Below, one piece after another: positions 1 to 10,163 of a stretch of DNA of 11,410 nucleotides. This DNA comes from a virus (lineage: Duplodnaviria; Heunggongvirae; Uroviricota; Caudoviricetes), in IMG/VR virus record IMGVR_UViG_2585427732_000018, one strand, 5' to 3'. Each line of letters starts with the position of its first letter. Position 1 is the first letter of the stretch. The position numbers were made by a program, and so were the translations under genes. Below the pieces are notes generated by a model that was not told the origin of the DNA, searched no databases, and was given only the letters and a program-made list of their open reading frames with translations.

Positions 1-1242
1 ATGGCGAGAAAAACACACCCATTAACCACAGTGCAGATCAAAGCAGCCAGACCAGCGCAAAAGGAGTACACCCTGCAGGACGGCGGAGGGCTTTTTCTCC
101 TGGTCAAACCGTCTGGATCAAAACTCTGGAGATTTTCCTACTACCGACCATCGGACAAAAAAAGAATATTGCTGAGTTTTGGATCGCTTGAAGATGTTTC
201 CCTGGCTGATGCCAGAAAACGCCGTAGCGAGTACAGGACGTTAATCAGTGCCGGAACTGACCCGCAGGACCACGAGAGGCAAAAAAGAGAGACAGAGGCC
301 CGAAGACAAGGGAACACGTTCGAAAATGTGGCGGCGGCATGGTACCAGGTGAAAATCAGCCAGAATCTGGCCCCCAACACGATTAAAGACATCTGGCGTT
401 CGCTGGATAAATATGTATTCCCGTTCATCGGCAACACGCCAATAGATACCCTCACCGCCCGAAGGTTCGTTGAAGTGCTTACACCCATCAAGGAGCGCGG
501 CAACCTGGAAACACTCAAGCGGGTTTTACAGCGCGTTAATGAGGTAATGGATTACGCCGCCAACAGTGGGCTGATTGATGCCAATCCGGCTATGAATGTG
601 CGTAAGGCGTTTCCCTCACCTGTAAAAAAACATATGCCAACAATCCGCCCCGAACAGCTGCCGGAGCTTATGCAGGCTTTATCAGTATCGGCAACAGAAC
701 GGCAGACCAGATTACTGATTGAATGGCAGTTACTGACCGTAACCCGTCCCGCCGAAGCGTCATCAACGCGGTGGGATGAAATCAACCTGGACGCGAAGCA
801 ATGGACGATACCTGCCGGACGCATGAAGATGCGCAGGGATCACGTTATCCCGCTTTCCGGTCAGGCTATGGCGGTGCTGGAGGCCATGAAACCAATCAGC
901 CACCACCGCAATTACGTTTTCCCAAGTCTGAAAGACCCACAGCAGCCGATGAACAGCCAGACAGCTAACGCAGCATTGCGGCGTATGGGATTCGCTGGCG
1001 TGCTGGTGTCTCATGGATTACGCGCCATATTCAGCACAGCAGCGAACGAGGAAGGATTCGAGCCGGACGTAATAGAGGCGGCACTTGCCCACGTCGACAC
1101 CAACGAAGTTAGACGGGCATACAACCGGAGCAACTACATAGAAAAACGCATCGTGCTGATGCGCTGGTGGGGCGAATTTGTCGAGGCTGCGGCGACGGGC
1201 GTAACCCTCGCCAGTGGTAAAAGGGGTATCCGAGCCGTGTAG
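1..1242 (+). CDS. int: Tyrosine site-specific integrase, P4-like family
   Basis: 413 aa ORF. N-terminus (KEYTLQDGGGLFLLVKPSGSKLWRFSYY...VSLADARKRR) is typical of P4-type integrases; C-terminal catalytic motifs HGLRAIF and YNRSNY (putative catalytic Tyr) are present. Confidence 0.93.
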   Translation: MARKTHPLTTVQIKAARPAQKEYTLQDGGGLFLLVKPSGSKLWRFSYYRPSDKKRILLSFGSLEDVSLADARKRRSEYRTLISAGTDPQDHERQKRETEARRQGNTFENVAAAWYQVKISQNLAPNTIKDIWRSLDKYVFPFIGNTPIDTLTARRFVEVLTPIKERGNLETLKRVLQRVNEVMDYAANSGLIDANPAMNVRKAFPSPVKKHMPTIRPEQLPELMQALSVSATERQTRLLIEWQLLTVTRPAEASSTRWDEINLDAKQWTIPAGRMKMRRDHVIPLSGQAMAVLEAMKPISHHRNYVFPSLKDPQQPMNSQTANAALRRMGFAGVLVSHGLRAIFSTAANEEGFEPDVIEAALAHVDTNEVRRAYNRSNYIEKRIVLMRWWGEFVEAAATGVTLASGKRGIRAV

Positions 1243-1319
1243 CTGTACAGAAAACCAGTAAAAACTACGAAAACCATGTAAAACCGTCGTATAATTGCAT
1301 CAAATTTAACGACAAGGCC

Positions 1320-3711: not shown

Positions 3712-4011
3712 ATGAAAAATAAAAATTCTGGCGTTACTGCCAGCGGCCCCGCTCGTCCTGAATTTATGAACGGCGATATTTACCGCGATAAATATGGCGG
3801 CATGGTAACGATTAAAGGCGTGGCAGAACGGCGCATCACCTACCGTCGTGAAGGCTACGAATATGATTGCGTGATGCCTGTTTATCAGTTTCGGCGTGAT
3901 TTTTCTCTGGTACAGGCAGCGCCCCGCAGTAAACCAACCAGCAGGGAGAAAGCACGCGCCAATATTCAGGAAATAAAAAAGATGCTTAACGTATTCAGGG
4001 GTAAAAAATGA
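3712..4011 (+). CDS. Hypothetical protein (99 aa), possibly DUF4222-like
   Basis: GGAGAA SD upstream; motif GDIYRDKYGGMVTIKGV...YRREGYEYDCVMPV resembles small proteins found beside primases in P4-like islands (family assignment from memory, unverified). Confidence 0.55.
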   Translation: MKNKNSGVTASGPARPEFMNGDIYRDKYGGMVTIKGVAERRITYRREGYEYDCVMPVYQFRRDFSLVQAAPRSKPTSREKARANIQEIKKMLNVFRGKK

Positions 4012-5756
4012 AACTGGCACCGAACGTAAAAAAACAGCCACGCGGAATAAAACACAAAGACACAGAGGTAATTATTTTCGCGGGTAGTGATGCCTGGTCG
4101 CACGCGAAACAATGGCAGGAGCAGGATGGCCCCGCATCCGGCGATAATGTGCCGCCTGTGTGGCTTGGGCCAAATCAGCTTGCCGAACTTGATGCACTGA
4201 AAATTGTTCCGGATGGGAAAAAGCGCGTAAGGCTGTACCAGGCCGGAGAACTGGATTTGGTGGAGACCAAAAAGATTGGTCAGAAGCTGGCGGCGGCAGA
4301 TATTCAGGACGCAAATTTTTACCCCGAAGGAATGCACGTCCAGAAGTGTGAAAACTGGCGGCGCTATCTGAATGCTGAGCGTGAAAATATTGCCGCAGGG
4401 CTTACCATGCCGGAGCAGAAAAATACGCAACTGGCACAAATGGCAGACAGTGAGCGCGCGCAGCTGCTTGCCGAGCGCTTTGATGGCGTTTGTGTGCATC
4501 CTGAAAGTGAAATCGTTCACGTATGGCGCGGCGGGGTATGGTGTCCGGTCAGCACAATGGAGCTGAGCCGCGAAATGGTGGCGATCTATTCAGAGCACAG
4601 GGCCACTTTCAGCAAGCGCGTAATCAATAACGCCGTGGAAGCGTTAAAAGTTATTGCCGAACCAATGGGCGAGCCGTCCGGCTATTTGCTGCCGTTCGCC
4701 AATGGTGCGCTTGACCTGAAAACGGGGGAATTTTCCCCGCACACGCCGGAGAACTGGATCACCACGCACAACGGCATTGAGTACACGCCACCAGCACCCG
4801 GGGAGAACATCCGCGATAACGCGCCAAACTTTCATAAATGGCTTGAGCACGCAGCCGGAAAAGACCCGAGCAAGATGATGCGTATATGTGCCGCGATGTA
4901 CATGATTATGGCGAACCGGTACGACTGGCAGATGTTTATTGAGGCCACCGGAGACGGCGGGAGCGGTAAAAGTACATTCACACATATAGCCAGCCTTCTG
5001 GCAGGGAAACAGAACACGGTAAGCGCTGAAATGACATCGCTTGATGATGCTGGTGGACGTGCGCAGGTTGTCGGGAGTCGTCTTATCGTCCTGGCTGACC
5101 AGCCGAAATATACAGGCGAAGGAACGGGCATCAAGAAAATCACAGGCGGCGACCCCGTGGAAGTTAACCCGAAATATGAAAAGCGTTTCACGGCGGTAAT
5201 CAGGGCGGTGGTGCTGGCGACCAACAACAACCCGATGATATTCACCGAACGGGCCGGAGGTGTGGCACGTCGTCGCGTGATTTTCCGTTTCGACAATATC
5301 GTCAGTGAGGCCGAAAAAGACAGGGAGCTACCGGAAAAGATCGCGGCTGAAATCCCTGTCATTATCCGCCGATTGCTGGCGAACTTTACCGACCCTGAGA
5401 AGGCACGGGCTTTACTACTGGAACAGCGTGACGGTGATGAAGCTCTGGCAATAAAGCAACAGACGGATCCGGTTATTGAGTTTTGCCAGTTCCTGAATTT
5501 TCTGGAGGAAGCACGCGGCCTGATGATGGGCGGCGGTGGCGATTCAGTGAAGTACACGACCAGAAACAGCCTTTACCGCGTCTATCTGGCGTTTATGGCG
5601 TACGCAGGCAGGAGCAAACCGCTAAACGTAAATGACTTTGGCAAGGCTATGAAGCCAGCCGCGAAAGTTTACGGACATGAATATATTACGCGGAAAGTTA
5701 AGGGAGTAACGCAGACTAACGCAATAACAACAGACGAGTGCGACGCGTTTTTATAA
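4008..5756 (+). CDS. Primase / replication initiator, P4-alpha-type (D5-like P-loop NTPase)
   Basis: 582 aa; Walker A GDGGSGKST and a downstream hydrophobic stretch LIVLADQ; start overlaps the upstream stop (ATGA); iteron origin immediately downstream, as is typical of satellite pri-rep genes. Confidence 0.88.
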   Translation: MKLAPNVKKQPRGIKHKDTEVIIFAGSDAWSHAKQWQEQDGPASGDNVPPVWLGPNQLAELDALKIVPDGKKRVRLYQAGELDLVETKKIGQKLAAADIQDANFYPEGMHVQKCENWRRYLNAERENIAAGLTMPEQKNTQLAQMADSERAQLLAERFDGVCVHPESEIVHVWRGGVWCPVSTMELSREMVAIYSEHRATFSKRVINNAVEALKVIAEPMGEPSGYLLPFANGALDLKTGEFSPHTPENWITTHNGIEYTPPAPGENIRDNAPNFHKWLEHAAGKDPSKMMRICAAMYMIMANRYDWQMFIEATGDGGSGKSTFTHIASLLAGKQNTVSAEMTSLDDAGGRAQVVGSRLIVLADQPKYTGEGTGIKKITGGDPVEVNPKYEKRFTAVIRAVVLATNNNPMIFTERAGGVARRRVIFRFDNIVSEAEKDRELPEKIAAEIPVIIRRLLANFTDPEKARALLLEQRDGDEALAIKQQTDPVIEFCQFLNFLEEARGLMMGGGGDSVKYTTRNSLYRVYLAFMAYAGRSKPLNVNDFGKAMKPAAKVYGHEYITRKVKGVTQTNAITTDECDAFL

Positions 5757-6044: not shown

Positions 6045-6323
6045 ATGCACACTTCAGGGAAATTTAATAAATCACTCAAAAAACGCAGAGACAGAACAGA
6101 ACCGAAATATCGCGCGTTAGACATGACAGAGCACGCTTTAAAGGTGGCAATCAGAACGATAGACCGCCACGCGGGGGAAGGATACGCGAAAGCACATCCC
6201 GAACTGATAAGCGCATTCATGACCACGACGGCGGCAAACTTTGCCACGCTGACAGAACGGGAGATTGCCGAAGCGGAACAGGTAACAACCATCAACGTTA
6301 AAACCGGAGAGGTGGAATCATGA
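6045..6323 (+). CDS. Hypothetical protein (92 aa)
   Basis: GAGGGGG upstream at about 11 nt; stop overlaps the ssb start (ATGA), suggesting translational coupling. No family recognised. Confidence 0.5.
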   Translation: MHTSGKFNKSLKKRRDRTEPKYRALDMTEHALKVAIRTIDRHAGEGYAKAHPELISAFMTTTAANFATLTEREIAEAEQVTTINVKTGEVES

Positions 6324-6742
6324 CAGCACAGATAGCCGCTTACGGGCGGCTGGTGGACGACCCGCAGGTAAAACAGACCAGCAAGGGCACACCGATGACG
6401 CTGGCGCGTATGGCGGTCCCCCTTCCGTGCAGCCAGGCAGATGACGGAACGGCGACGATGTGGTTATCCGTCCTGGCATTTGGCAGACAGGCCGAAGCAC
6501 TGGAAAGGCACCGCAAGGGTGAACTCCTGAGCGTGGCGGGTAACATGCAGATCAGCCAGTGGACTGGGCAGAACGGAGAAACGCGGCAGGGCTGGCAGGT
6601 TATCGCAGACAGTGTAATCAGTGCGCGAACGGCGCGACTGGGCGGCAAAAAAGGTCAACAGGGCCAGGCTACTGACGCGCTGAACAGGGCAAAACAACAG
6701 GCGGGGAATGATGATCCGTACGGGGATAACATACCGTTTTAA
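6320..6742 (+). CDS. ssb: Single-stranded DNA-binding protein (SSB-like OB fold)
   Basis: 140 aa; GRLVDDPQV...W..V.AFG..AE.....RKG aligns with the E. coli SSB OB fold; Gly/Gln-rich linker; C-terminal DDPYGDNIPF resembles the SSB acidic tip (DDDIPF). Confidence 0.75.
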   Translation: MTAQIAAYGRLVDDPQVKQTSKGTPMTLARMAVPLPCSQADDGTATMWLSVLAFGRQAEALERHRKGELLSVAGNMQISQWTGQNGETRQGWQVIADSVISARTARLGGKKGQQGQATDALNRAKQQAGNDDPYGDNIPF

Positions 6743-6757
6743 GCGACGAGTGACAGA

Positions 6758-6781
6758 AGCCGGAGCAATCCGGCTTTTTTA
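6758..6781 (+). terminator. Rho-independent terminator after ssb
   Basis: AGCCGGA-GCAA-TCCGGCT hairpin plus TTTTTT. Confidence 0.7.
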
Positions 6782-6835
6782 CGGGTCCTCCTGGCGGGGT
6801 GGGCCTGAACACGGGGCGGGAGGCGCGGAAAAAAG
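6782..6835 (+). other. Degenerate cos-like relic (third copy of the terminator-cos module)
   Basis: CGGGTCCTCCTGG...ACGGGGCGGGAGGCGCGG parallels 9223-9275 (CGGGTCCTTCCTGG...ACGGGGCGGCGACCTCGCGG) but the 12-nt cosN core is disrupted. Confidence 0.5.
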
Positions 6836-6954
6836 CGCATTTTTGTGATTTTATCGTCATCATCATCATGAGCGTAATTTATTGTTTTTAATTGTTTTGA
6901 TGCAAAAAAGATGATGGTTGTGGTTAATTTTCGTTCGACATCTTTGCAGGCAGA

Positions 6955-6997
6955 TAAAAAAGCCCGATAAGGTCAGAGGTGGCTTATCGGGCTTTTG
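6955..6997. terminator. Bidirectional intrinsic terminator-like hairpin
   Basis: 10 bp stem GCCCGATAAG/CTTATCGGGC with 11 nt loop, A-tract on the 5' side and TTTT on the 3' side. Confidence 0.5.
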
Positions 6998-7073
6998 CAT
7001 ATGAGACTTTTTGGTGCACTGACACACATGATCGGGATCATCATTTCATAATTTGCAACACAACTCAATATCA

Positions 7074-7101
7074 TTGCACAAAATGCAATCATGATTATAA
7101 T
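7074..7101 (+). promoter_or_regulatory. Near-consensus sigma70 promoter of the capsid operon
   Basis: -35 TTGCAC (7074-7079), 16 bp spacer, -10 TATAAT (7096-7101). Confidence 0.55.
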
Positions 7102-7106
7102 CAGAG

Positions 7107-7122
7107 CTGGATGAACATCCAG
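7107..7122. promoter_or_regulatory. Palindrome CTGGATG-AA-CATCCAG at the predicted transcription start, operator candidate
   Basis: Perfect 7 bp arms immediately downstream of the -10; T-tract at 7129-7134 is 6 nt from the stem, so it is not a canonical terminator. Confidence 0.4.
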
Positions 7123-7157
7123 TTATGATTTTTTAAGTCGAAGAGGAATTTCTTACT

Positions 7158-7364
7158 ATGGCTGAAGAGAAAAAAGGCGGTGTTTCGGTGTACATAAGCC
7201 CCGAAATCGTGGAGGTGCTCAAGCAGCGCCACAAAAAAAACTATGAGGCTGGCGTGGCGGCTGGACTGGATCCGCTGATGACGCCGGAGCCGTCGATAGG
7301 TTCACTTGTACGCTCTTATTTACTTGCGGCGCTTGGGATGCATAAAAATTATGGGGGTGAATAA
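7158..7364 (+). CDS. Small RHH-like protein (68 aa), first gene of the capsid operon
   Basis: GVSVYISPEIVEVLKQ (beta strand plus helix) and SIGSLVRSYLLAALG (helix) suggest a ribbon-helix-helix fold; stop overlaps the capsid gene start by 1 nt. Confidence 0.5.
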   Translation: MAEEKKGGVSVYISPEIVEVLKQRHKKNYEAGVAAGLDPLMTPEPSIGSLVRSYLLAALGMHKNYGGE

Positions 7365-8419
7365 TGGCAGGCAAAGCAACGGCACTTAACACTAACCAGC
7401 TTTTCATGTACCTGAATCGCGGGGATATTGCGGATTTTAAATTCAGCCCTCTGTTTACCACGCTGTTTTTCCCGAACGTGGCGACATTCAGCACGCAAAA
7501 CATCATGCTGGATACCCTGGACATTGAAGAAGTCACCATGTCGGCGTTTTGTTCGCCTATGGTGGGTAGCCAGGTTCAGCGCGATAAAGGGTACGAAACC
7601 AGCACAATCAAACCTGGCTACATGAAGCCAAAGCACGAAATCGATCCAACGAAAACCATCATGCGCATGGCTGGAGAAGATCCGGCACAGCTTAACGACC
7701 CTACCTATCGCCGTATGCGCCTGATTACTGGCAACATGCGCCGCCAGATAAACGCCATTAAGGCACGCGTGGAATGGCTGGCGGTGAATGCGGTAACGAC
7801 CGGAAAAAACATCATTGAGGGCGAAGGCATAGAACGCTATGAAATCGACTGGAAAATACCGGAAAACTGCATCATAGAGCAGGCCAAGGGTAAAAAATGG
7901 TCCGAGCAGGATAAAGACATGCACGACCCAATCTATGACATCGAGCTTTATGCTGATCAGGCTGGTTGCCCCGCAAACGTCATGATTATGGGCGCTGAGG
8001 TATGGCGCACATTACGCAGCTTTAAAAAATTCCGTGAGCTGTACGATCTTTCCCGTGGTTCAGAATCCGCCGCCGAACTGGCCTGTAAAAACCTGGGCGA
8101 AGTGGTGAGCTTTAAAGGCTATCTTGGTGATCTGGCCCTTATCGTCTATTCCGGCAAATACACTGACAGCGATGGTACCGAAAAATATTTCCTTGAGCCT
8201 GATTTGCTGGTCCTGGGTAACACCAACAATAAAGGGCTGGTGGCCTATGGTGCGATAATGGATCAGGAAGCGGTAAGAACGGGCGCAACACAAAACATGT
8301 TTTACCCGAAAAACTGGATTGAGGACGGCGATCCGGCGATTGAGTACGTGCAGACACACAGTGCACCGCAGCCGGTACCGGCAGATATTCGCAAATTTGT
8401 TACCGTCAAAATTGGTTAA
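7364..8419 (+). CDS. Major capsid protein, phage lambda gpE-like
   Basis: 351 aa; long colinear matches to lambda gpE as I recall it: DFKFSPLF..LFF; SP.V...V.R.......IKPGYMKPKHEIDP; EDP..L.DP.YRR.R; WSEQDK..HDP..DIE.YA; RGSES....A.K.LGE.VSFKG..GD.A.IVYSG.Y; YPKNW...GDPA.E. GGGGGTGA SD upstream. Confidence 0.9.
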   Translation: MAGKATALNTNQLFMYLNRGDIADFKFSPLFTTLFFPNVATFSTQNIMLDTLDIEEVTMSAFCSPMVGSQVQRDKGYETSTIKPGYMKPKHEIDPTKTIMRMAGEDPAQLNDPTYRRMRLITGNMRRQINAIKARVEWLAVNAVTTGKNIIEGEGIERYEIDWKIPENCIIEQAKGKKWSEQDKDMHDPIYDIELYADQAGCPANVMIMGAEVWRTLRSFKKFRELYDLSRGSESAAELACKNLGEVVSFKGYLGDLALIVYSGKYTDSDGTEKYFLEPDLLVLGNTNNKGLVAYGAIMDQEAVRTGATQNMFYPKNWIEDGDPAIEYVQTHSAPQPVPADIRKFVTVKIG

Positions 8420-8431
8420 CGGGGGAATTCT

Positions 8432-8767
8432 ATGGACACTCCATACATTGAGTTATTTGCAGGCAGTCAGCAGGTATCCACGACGTTGGTACATTTTGCC
8501 GCTGATGCTGGCGTTATTCAGGAATTTACCCCGCTGATGCTGGCAGACAATGGCGAGTTTAAGCCGTGGGATGGTCAGGAATCTGGCAAGGCTGTTTATC
8601 TGACCTCGTACCCTGTGGACACGTCAAAGCAGAAATCAGCACAGTGTTACAAGACGGGGATATTCAATATTGCCGCCGTTAACTGGCCTGAGAGCGTCGA
8701 CACCGATGCGAAAAAATGCGCCGCCTTTGCGGGTTCCGGCGTATCCGTTCAGCCGCTGGCCCGATAA
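8432..8767 (+). CDS. Head decoration protein, phage lambda gpD-like
   Basis: 111 aa, about the size of gpD; conserved TPLMLAD...WDG, YKTG.F, WPES.D.DAKK.AAFAGSG motifs; GGGGGAA SD upstream. Confidence 0.8.
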   Translation: MDTPYIELFAGSQQVSTTLVHFAADAGVIQEFTPLMLADNGEFKPWDGQESGKAVYLTSYPVDTSKQKSAQCYKTGIFNIAAVNWPESVDTDAKKCAAFAGSGVSVQPLAR

Positions 8768-8779
8768 GCAGGGGGAACG

Positions 8780-9193
8780 ATGGCAACGAATGAAAGCATC
8801 ATGACGCTACCGCTGGCGAGTAAATTTAAAGCCGAAGCGCGGGCAATGGCTGACAGAGGTTTATCAACCTACGAGGCCGTATATCAACTCAACAAACTGG
8901 AAGAGCAGGACAAGCCGCGCGCTGATGCGATTATGGCGCTTCATGAGCATAAAGACTATCAGCCGCTGTTGCGTGCAATGGCAAACGTGCCTTGTATCGA
9001 TGTTGATACGGCTAAAAACATCCTGAACATGACCATAGAGCAGGAACGCCCGAAGGTTGCACCAGAGCTTACCGCAGCCTTTGAAAACTTTATGGACATG
9101 CACAGCCCACAAACCGTATCAGCTGGCATGGCATACGATGGCAGAAACCCAGGCGATGACGGCGACATCGATCGCATACTGAAAACCATCTGA
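8780..9193 (+). CDS. Hypothetical protein (137 aa), predicted helical, in the capsid operon
   Basis: Same GGGGGAA SD as the two upstream genes; followed by a terminator. Occupies the position that lambda gpFI holds after gpE, but I see no sequence similarity to gpFI. Confidence 0.6.
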   Translation: MATNESIMTLPLASKFKAEARAMADRGLSTYEAVYQLNKLEEQDKPRADAIMALHEHKDYQPLLRAMANVPCIDVDTAKNILNMTIEQERPKVAPELTAAFENFMDMHSPQTVSAGMAYDGRNPGDDGDIDRILKTI

Positions 9194-9222: not shown

Positions 9223-9290
9223 CGGGTCCTTCCTGGAATTATGGCCCGTTACGGGGCGGCGACCTCGCGGTTTTTCGCTATTTATGAGCT
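9223..9290 (+). other. cos site (forward copy): cosN cohesive-end sequence GGGCGGCGACCT at 9254-9265 with lambda-like flanks
   Basis: CCCGTTACG-GGGCGGCGACCT-CGCGGTTTTTCGCTATTTATGA matches the phage lambda cos junction as I recall it; similarity to lambda stops about 30 bp to the right of cosN. Confidence 0.8.
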
Positions 9291-9398: not shown

Positions 9399-9941
9399 AT
9401 GAAATCGCACCTGATGAACAAAAAAAACATGGCGAAAAGCTGCCGTGTAAGTGCGACAGCGTTCGACAAGTGGGGAGTGACTCCCGTTGAACGTAAAGGC
9501 CGTGAGGCGTTTTACGATGTTGCCAGCGTGATAGACAATAGGGTTAACAATGCAATTAGCCAGCTTACAAACGACAAAGGCGATATTGATGATGATGAAC
9601 TCTTACGAGTCAGGATCAGATTACTGACAGCACAGGCGGAGGCGCAGGAACTTAAAAACGAGCGCGATCGCGGTGACGTGATTGATACTGAGTTTTGCCT
9701 GTACGCGCTTTCAAAGCTGGCGAGTCAGATTTCATCAATCATGGACAGCCTCCCGCTTACTATGCAAAGGAGCTTCCCACAGATTACCCCCGCCATGCTG
9801 GATAGGCTTAAAAGGGAAGTGGTTAAAGCCTGTAATGCCAGTGCCAGAGTTGCCGACAACCTCCCACAGATACTGGCTGATTACTTGAAAGAAACAACCG
9901 GAAACGTACCGGAAAAGTTGCTACAGAAGAAAGGCGAGTAA
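9399..9941 (+). CDS. Terminase small subunit homologue (lambda Nu1-like); candidate packaging-redirection (Rpp-type) protein
   Basis: 180 aa; C-terminal two thirds (LTAQAEAQELKNERDRGDVIDTEFCLYALSKLASQISSIMDSLPLTMQRSFP) closely parallel lambda Nu1; N-terminal wHTH region is much more diverged. Alternative starts at 9414 and 9429; no strong SD for any. Confidence 0.8.
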   Translation: MKSHLMNKKNMAKSCRVSATAFDKWGVTPVERKGREAFYDVASVIDNRVNNAISQLTNDKGDIDDDELLRVRIRLLTAQAEAQELKNERDRGDVIDTEFCLYALSKLASQISSIMDSLPLTMQRSFPQITPAMLDRLKREVVKACNASARVADNLPQILADYLKETTGNVPEKLLQKKGE

Positions 9942-9964: not shown

Positions 9965-10163
9965 ACTGAGAAACGACATGAAAGCGTCATAAATCGCCAT
10001 TTTAGATGATTACCGTGTCGTTTCTTTTTATTGTGTATCTATTTAAAAACAAATAGTTATGTTCGAGAAGTACCGACATGCTTTTTCCAGAAAAATTTTC
10101 ATAAACAGATAAAAACCGCGAGGTCGCCGCCCCGTAACGGGCCATAATTCCAGGAAGGACCCG
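9965..10163 (-). other. cos site (inverted copy) with lambda-like cosB architecture; cosN core at 10121-10132 (minus strand)
   Basis: 10111-10163 is the exact reverse complement of 9223-9275 (53 bp). Read on the minus strand, the flank continues with ATCTGTTTATGAAAATTTTTCTGG, an R3-like TCGGTACTTCTCGAACATAACT, an AT-rich TTGTTTTTAAATAGATAC and an inverted repeat AGAAACGACA/TGTCGTTTCT (9969-9978 / 10016-10025), resembling lambda R3-I1-R2-R1. Confidence 0.75.

Follow-up and report, generated by a model that had tools for sequence, protein, structure and literature searches.

The subject of this analysis is a short palindrome, CTGGATG-AA-CATCCAG, that lies on the predicted transcription start ahead of the capsid operon in IMG/VR virus record IMGVR_UViG_2585427732_000018, an 11,410-nt stretch of Caudoviricetes DNA that is referred to below as the window. 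The window is a phage satellite, a phage-inducible chromosomal island (PICI) of the EcCICFT073 type. Its counterpart in Escherichia coli CFT073 is the island between roxA and phoQ, i.e., EcCICFT073, which serves as a model Gram-negative PICI (PMC6092414, PMC6739421). A previous sequence-only reading had labelled the window a satellite and the genes in question a capsid operon, and both labels proved to be correct, with gpE-like capsid, decoration, Nu3/protease-C-like and Nu1-like Rpp genes being present. That reading proposed that the palindrome was either a repressor operator or a pause/termination element requiring an antiterminator. Our results favor the first of these options and suggest that the repressor is LexA, the regulator of the host SOS response. 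The promoter region and the operon contain the following features.

6951..7003, GC-rich long inverted repeat AAAAAGCCCGATAAG ... CTTATCGGGCTTTT, a hairpin resembling an intrinsic terminator for both directions, at the end of the replication/SSB module and ahead of the capsid promoter
7040..7066, plus strand, conserved upstream block ATCATTTCATAATTTGCAACACAACTC, about -68 to -42, where the similarity between E. coli and Salmonella starts exactly
7073..7089, inverted repeat ATTGCA-N5-TGCAAT over the -35 hexamer and spacer, GTTGC-N7-GCAAC in the Salmonella version
7074..7079, plus strand, predicted -35 hexamer TTGCAC, with TTGC invariant and positions 5-6 variable
7096..7101, plus strand, predicted -10 hexamer TATAAT, 16 nt after the -35 hexamer; TAAAAT in the lineage that lacks the box
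7105..7124, candidate LexA (SOS) box AGCTGGATGAACATCCAGTT, with the core CTG-N10-CAG at 7107-7122, spanning roughly -3 to +16 relative to the predicted start
7129..7134, plus strand, T6 run in the 5' leader, kept also in the lineage that lacks the palindrome
7141..7148, plus strand, Shine-Dalgarno (SD) sequence AAGAGGAA of the first gene, invariant in all lineages; the ATG is at 7158
7158..7364, plus strand, first gene of the operon, 68 aa, phrog_3255, with homologs found only in E. coli and Salmonella islands
7364..8419, plus strand, major capsid protein of the lambda gpE family (Pfam PF03864, E = 5.5e-50; phrog_29)
8432..8767, plus strand, gpD-like head decoration protein (phrog_49; PF02924 in relatives)
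8780..9193, plus strand, 137-aa open reading frame (ORF) similar to the C-terminal portion of a scaffold or head maturation protease (Nu3/protease-C-like; phrog_1999, weak phrog_53 match)
9399..9941, plus strand, Nu1/TerS-like protein, the Rpp of EcCICFT073-type islands (PF07471; phrog_57; PMC6739421)

The morphogenesis, packaging and interference genes thus form one unit downstream of the primase, SSB and the terminator, and the Rpp gene is possibly carried on the same transcript as the capsid genes. The terminator-like hairpin at 6951-7003 has a run of T4 on the plus strand and T6 on the minus strand and is kept in the E. coli relatives.

All of the elements named in the sequence-only reading were found in place: TTGCAC (7074-7079), the 16-nt spacer, TATAAT (7096-7101), the palindrome (7107-7122) and the T6 run (7129-7134). 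Its wording was more generous than the sequence allows, in two respects. The promoter was called near-consensus, which is true of the perfect -10 hexamer but not of the -35 hexamer, which matches TTGACA at three of six positions (TTG), or of the 16-nt spacer; the weak -35 and this spacer explain why a consensus scanner did not call the promoter. The palindrome was also said to follow the promoter, and the T-run to follow the palindrome, at once, and this is only approximately so, with 5 nt (CAGAG) between the -10 hexamer and the palindrome and 6 nt (TTATGA) between the palindrome and the T6 run. The other promoter offered by the scanner, TTCATA-18-TATCAT (7045-7074), was rejected because its -10 hexamer is not conserved in Salmonella.

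We next compared these motifs with chance expectation. The pattern TTGNNN-16..18-TATAAT occurs once in the window vs. 0.34 expected, and 28% of simulated windows contain at least one, while there are 7 perfect inverted repeats with arms of 7 nt and spacers of 0-4 nt, vs. 4.7 +/- 2.5 in simulations. Neither the promoter match alone nor the palindrome alone is beyond chance and, therefore, the case rests on context and comparison. Its weight comes from the position of these elements in the gap between the terminator and the first gene, from their conservation between E. coli and Salmonella, and from the match of the palindrome to a LexA matrix.

The palindrome, CTGGATGAACATCCAG at 7107-7122, fits the 16-bp CTG-N10-CAG palindrome architecture of E. 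coli LexA operators. It was scored with a symmetrised LexA matrix derived from the 18 known E. coli boxes in Table 4 of PMC3009722. The site at 7105-7124 reached 18.98 bits with a heterology index of 8.09, inside the range of the known boxes (n = 18), whose leave-one-out scores are 7.35-28.3 bits (ruvA, 18.7; lexA, 19.3) and whose heterology indices are 0.27-9.29. Apart from a second site at 1241-1260, which is described below, the next best site in the window scored 7.2 bits. According to the exact score distribution, a score such as this has a chance of 2e-7 per 20-mer, or 0.0024 expected occurrences per window. Among 1000 Markov-simulated windows, three had a site reaching 18 bits, and no window had two. 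In the 92 related loci (843 kb), a threshold of 13 bits was reached only at the capsid promoter and in the gap between int and alpA, and the capsid-promoter box always lay 53 nt after the start of the search pattern (7052 in the window). Furthermore, no LexA-like site above 11.2 bits was observed in about 49 kb of the Sakai chromosome. A site in CFT073, TACTGTTTTTTTATACACTG (18-19 bits), was not accepted as a firm LexA box, as it ends in CAC rather than CAG and lies inside a GTGTA...TACAC repeat.

Two known operators resemble the candidate box. The ruvA operator (CTGGATATCTATCCAG) has the same CTG-N10-CAG arrangement and is identical in the outer six bases on each side, CTGGAT....ATCCAG, and the cho operator (CTGGATAGATAACCAG) is of the same CTGG...CCAG type (PMC3009722). 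The matrix scores are 19.0 bits for this box vs. 18.7 for ruvA and 20.3 for cho, and the site here is located at a predicted promoter. The differences are that the centre of the ruvA operator is ATCT, whereas it is GAAC here, that ruvAB and cho are repair genes, whereas those studied here are capsid-related genes of a satellite, and that the LexA site here is a predicted one. By sequence, the palindrome thus looks like a LexA box of the ruvA/cho subclass. The candidate box begins 4 nt after the conserved TATAAT and covers the start site, promoter and start being predicted rather than mapped. SOS genes usually have an operator that overlaps the -10 to +1 region.

Copies of the promoter region were aligned from ten E. 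coli genomes, 80 IMG/VR contigs that were recovered with a promoter pattern, 14 metagenome contigs, and Salmonella islands that were found through the 68-aa protein. The box was present in 86 of the 92 IMG/VR and E. coli loci. It was also present in Salmonella, where the product of the first gene is 53-55% identical and the box reads GACTGGATGAAAATCCAGTA (20.1 bits). Alignment with the Salmonella islands shows a sharp onset of similarity near -68 (ATCATTTCATAATTT), and this similarity extends through the -35 hexamer, the spacer, TATAAT and the palindrome. Farther upstream, and over most of the leader past the box, the sequences are unrelated or rearranged. Retention of the segment from -68 to the box amid diverged flanks is a phylogenetic footprint of the predicted promoter plus its putative operator. 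Neither the 68-aa ORF nor the capsid protein gave confirmed loci in scans of genome contigs, and a scan of IMG/VR with the capsid protein returned only relatives of 92-100% identity. When metagenomes were scanned with the promoter pattern alone, most matches were AT-rich sequences occurring by chance, and the 14 true homologs represented no new lineage.

The natural variants of the box were informative as well. Variation is found at the two flanking bases, the innermost base of the arm, the centre, and one stem position (CCAG to ACAG), while CTG and CAG never change, and the variants score 16.1-22.1 bits. The 10 distinct natural substitutions cost a mean of 0.44 bits, compared with 3.21 bits for all possible substitutions, and only 9 of 100,000 random sets were as good. 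The ACAG variant, a C to A change in the stem, is uncompensated and is nearer to the LexA consensus (21.6 bits); in one locus that carries it (L023), the 68-aa ORF and the capsid gene are intact. A sister lineage, referred to here as lineage B (L002-like, 6-7 loci; L002:3019-3125), keeps the promoter as TTGCAA-16-TAAAAT, the T-run and the SD sequence, and has no palindrome. In these loci, other sequence takes the place of the box's right half, giving ACTG[ACTTTTCG]TTATG vs. ACTG[GATGAACATCCAG]TTATG elsewhere. Lineage B is a natural operator-less control. Altogether, the matrix score, the conservation, and the preference for substitutions that LexA tolerates support the repressor-operator option of the sequence-only reading and sharpen it to a predicted operator of the host LexA protein.

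We consider it fairly probable, judging from the sequence comparisons, that a sigma-70 promoter repressed by host LexA precedes the capsid genes and that the SOS response switches them on. From the elements, their positions, their conservation and the LexA-box match, we infer where transcription starts, that LexA binds and represses the promoter, and that SOS induces it. According to this model, TTGCAC-16-TATAAT would drive expression of the 68-aa ORF, the capsid and decoration proteins, the 137-aa ORF and possibly Rpp. In an undamaged cell, a LexA dimer positioned at about -3 to +16 would block RNA polymerase; upon DNA damage, RecA would be activated, LexA would cleave itself, and the promoter would be freed. 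The same signal induces lambdoid helper prophages, such that the capsid-related proteins of the satellite would be made as a resident helper nears lysis. The T-run would be a feature of the leader unrelated to the palindrome, and the conserved block upstream of the -35 hexamer probably carries a second input.

Several observations weigh against control by LexA, or limit what it can explain. Both half-sites are of the CTGG/CCAG type and not of the commoner CTGT/ACAG type, which gives the box a middling strength, so that repression may be leaky. Lineage B keeps the promoter without the box, which indicates that the box is dispensable, and there is no LexA-like box at the head-gene promoter of Sp7, a capsid-forming island of strain Sakai. 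The positions that are informative for LexA coincide with those of the stem and, therefore, conservation alone cannot separate selection on DNA from selection on RNA; only the ACAG variants do so. LexA also does not account for the strongly conserved block upstream of the -35 hexamer or for the repeat over the -35, either of which may be the site of an activator or a second repressor and give the promoter a second input. Previous studies showed that EcCICFT073 interferes with lambda upon plain infection of non-lysogens (PMC6092414), so that, if rpp is on this transcript, LexA cleavage cannot be the sole route to its expression. In addition, expression of alpA in EcCICFT073 reportedly does not depend on SOS (PMC6092414). 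Finally, LexA control in Gram-negative islands was not mentioned in the literature searched, which did not cover subscription literature.

The alternative that survives best, although we consider it unlikely, is that the palindrome is the operator of another dimeric DNA-binding protein, encoded by the island (AlpA-like or Icd/Ash-like) or by the helper, and that it resembles a LexA box only by coincidence. In favor of this are the perfect 7+7 symmetry at the start site, the several predicted regulators that the island encodes (including the AlpA-like and Icd/Ash-like proteins), and the further conserved symmetric elements of the promoter. However, a search of the window that tolerated 3 mismatches found the palindrome only once; it thus marks no regulon of island promoters. 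Furthermore, the box is kept across islands with very different early regions and replicases (D5_N primase, RepA helicase, AAA_25), which is a better fit to a universal host factor than to an island protein that would co-vary with them. A coincidental likeness would also have to accommodate a LexA match expected 0.002 times per window and natural variants that drift toward the LexA consensus.

It is less probable still that the palindrome acts as RNA, i.e., as a stem-loop at the 5' end that stabilises the mRNA or modulates translation, with or without a role in DNA. A transcript beginning at 7106 would form a 7-bp stem with 3 G-C pairs and an energy of -7.8 kcal/mol (z = -2.9 vs. shuffles), and 5'-terminal stem-loops protect E. 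coli mRNAs. To include this stem, transcription must start at or before 7106, whereas the -10 hexamer predicts a start at 7108-7109, which would remove 2-3 bases of the stem. The ACAG change, which breaks the central G-C pair of the stem, weakens the hairpin to -2.0 kcal/mol, is uncompensated and leaves the operon intact, and lineage B is stemless (-0.5 kcal/mol). No compensatory pair changes were found in the stem among 59 distinct sequences, and an Rfam search of 6850-7450 revealed no family at threshold, its sub-threshold noise on the minus strand being driven by the terminator.

A functionless palindrome, i.e., a chance inverted repeat hitchhiking with a recently spread and highly similar promoter region, appears very improbable. 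About 5 palindromes with 7-nt arms are expected per window, one lineage lacks this one, and most copies are more than 90% identical, making conservation within E. coli weak evidence. Nevertheless, the palindrome is kept in Salmonella despite diverged flanks, its substitutions are non-random with respect to the LexA matrix, and its LexA score is far outside chance.

The least probable explanation was the second option of the sequence-only reading, in which the promoter is constitutive and the hairpin with its T-run is a pause or terminator that is read through only in the presence of the Q protein of a lambdoid helper. The helpers of such islands are indeed lambdoid phages that use Q (PMC6092414), and a pattern scanner listed 7105-7124 plus ATGATTTTTT as terminator-like. 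Such matches are common, however (22 in the window vs. 13 +/- 3.8 in shuffles), and this one makes a poor intrinsic terminator, with a weak stem of 3 G-C pairs, UUAUGA between the stem and U6, and a location that would be +1 to +27 of the very RNA it should terminate. Neither the ACAG variants nor lineage B retain the hairpin. Since the T6 run is retained in lineage B without the palindrome, it is not part of a hairpin-plus-T terminator and probably represents U-rich leader sequence preceding the SD sequence. The sole pause candidate in the initial transcribed region, the -10-like TATGAT (7124-7129), is not conserved, as its key A at the second position is lost in relatives with TGTGAT, TCTGAT or CCTGAT, and TATGGT also occurs. 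A blastn comparison of 6990-7165 with 50,697 phage records found nothing but one match with E = 0.5, although a divergent Q-binding element could escape sequence comparison. The layout also differs from that of lambda pR', which is likewise a sigma-70 promoter ahead of head genes, in a phage of the lambdoid group on which the island depends. The lambda pR' promoter has a Q-binding element in its spacer. Its terminator is about 190 nt downstream of the start, whereas here the hairpin is on the predicted start itself and there is neither a robust terminator nor a conserved -10-like pause inducer. Moreover, helpers with different Q specificities (lambda and phi80) mobilise the same island (PMC6092414). 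Thus, the claim that the satellite times its capsid genes by the late regulator of the helper found no support, the defining features of a Q-dependent promoter not having been found, and from the sequence the host SOS signal is the likelier timer.

The conserved elements upstream of the box deserve separate description. The 7040-7066 block, which is possibly an UP-like element or an activator site, and the repeat (A/G)TTGC-N7-GCAA(T/C) are kept in E. coli, Salmonella and the box-less lineage. In Salmonella, the outer pair of the 7073-7089 repeat is G..C in place of A..T. For the upstream TTGCA motifs, we considered a sigma-54 promoter, an IHF site and a MerR-type site, and none fits its consensus, as judged by eye only. 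Two 7-mers of the upstream region, CATTTCA and TCAATAT, are shared with the alpA promoter (1613 and 1625), where their order is unchanged, but two 7-mers are too little evidence for an activator site common to the alpA and capsid promoters, and this idea was set aside.

The second LexA-like box is located in the early part of the window, which contains the following features.

1-1242, tyrosine integrase (int)
1241..1260, second LexA-like box AGCTGTACAGAAAACCAGTA, starting 1 nt past the int stop codon and scoring 18.05 bits (heterology index 7.7)
1738-1944, AlpA-like gene
3712-5756, D5-type primase; a DUF4222 gene is also present in the window
6320-6742, SSB

Downstream of the 1241-1260 box are a TATAAT (1290-1295), an ORF at 1320/1341-1571 (76-83 aa) for which no family match was found, and a strong terminator (1579-1602), all of them upstream of the AlpA-like gene. 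At least 16 related loci carry this box, and the int-alpA gap of further relatives holds boxes of other types. Among the latter are TACTGTATTTTAATCCAGTA (24.8 bits) and the pair TACTGGATATGCGAACAGAT / TACTGGTTTTTTATACACTA, which is also found in Sakai Sp7. Just upstream of the AlpA-like gene, at 1634-1660, are two overlapping perfect palindromes and repeats of AAAACGGTG (AAACGGTGTATACCGTTT, ACCGTTTAAAAACGGT), which are candidate operators for the AlpA autoregulation that was reported for EcCICFT073. We tentatively suggest, as a possibility that falls well short of probable, that the island is wired to LexA at two points, the int-alpA gap and the start of the capsid operon, in parallel to the AlpA switch that the helper triggers. 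Such wiring would be convergent with that of the staphylococcal operon discussed below, and the upstream block and the TTGC-N7-GCAA repeat could supply a second input, giving a two-key gate.

Other observations concern the gene content of the island and its relatives. In the 68-aa ORF, the DNA of 7158-7231, about the first third, is nearly invariant across 64 distinct sequences, whereas 7232-7364 is highly polymorphic, which suggests a recombination boundary or an added constraint on the 5' part of the transcript. The interval between SSB and the terminator (6743-7003) includes about 210 nt without a convincing gene; relatives have a small ORF and the gene of a PerC-family regulator there. Two copies of the lambda cohesive-end sequence GGGCGGCGACCT, one inverted relative to the other, flank the Nu1/Rpp-like gene at 9253-9264 (plus strand) and 10122-10133. 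This pair corresponds to the two cos sites described for EcCICFT073, and the pattern scanner scored both as terminator-like hairpins. In O157:H7 Sakai, 'prophage Sp7; untypable' (L177:5712-21172) occupies the same roxA-phoQ site and looks capsid-forming. Its early region is similar (integrase, primase, SSB, PchE), but its head, protease, portal and terminase genes are of the HK97 type.

The arrangement proposed here has a parallel in the pathogenicity islands of Staphylococcus aureus (SaPIs), whose operon I, a packaging and interference module, is under LexA control (Ubeda et al. 2007, as cited in PMC5052747). By analogy, in both cases a satellite module for morphogenesis, packaging and interference, located after the replication origin, would be governed by the host SOS repressor, apart from the master switch that senses the helper. 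Unlike operon I, the genes here are of the lambda type (PF03864, PF07471), there is no homology of genes or operators, the host belongs to another phylum, and the master switch is an activator, AlpA, rather than the repressor Stl. Gram-positive LexA boxes have another consensus. The parallel would thus represent convergence and not homology. A second precedent is provided by extraintestinal pathogenic E. coli (ExPEC), in which LexA directly represses the prophage endolysin genes Epel1/2 (PMC9621596). SOS boxes gate late-type genes of a mobile element there, as is proposed here, although those genes serve prophage lysis and the present ones are capsid-related genes of a satellite.

In the published logic of Gram-negative PICIs, the helper induces alpA and AlpA then switches the island on (PMC6092414). 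Transcription of the capsid, decoration and Rpp genes was not addressed in the literature searched, in which the original PICI paper was the only match for c1499/c1500, and the LexA prediction was likewise not found there. The box itself is of an ordinary SOS kind and is notable for its place. If the prediction is true, the capsid-related genes of these islands join the host SOS regulon and would be expressed early after DNA damage, before the late proteins of the helper and without the need for a helper factor. Gram-positive and Gram-negative satellites would then have reached the same control of their packaging and interference modules independently. The region around the promoter is matched in about 600 of 5,426 complete E. 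coli genomes, including many O157, O55, O111 and ExPEC strains and, therefore, SOS-inducing antibiotics could affect the expression of these satellite genes widely.

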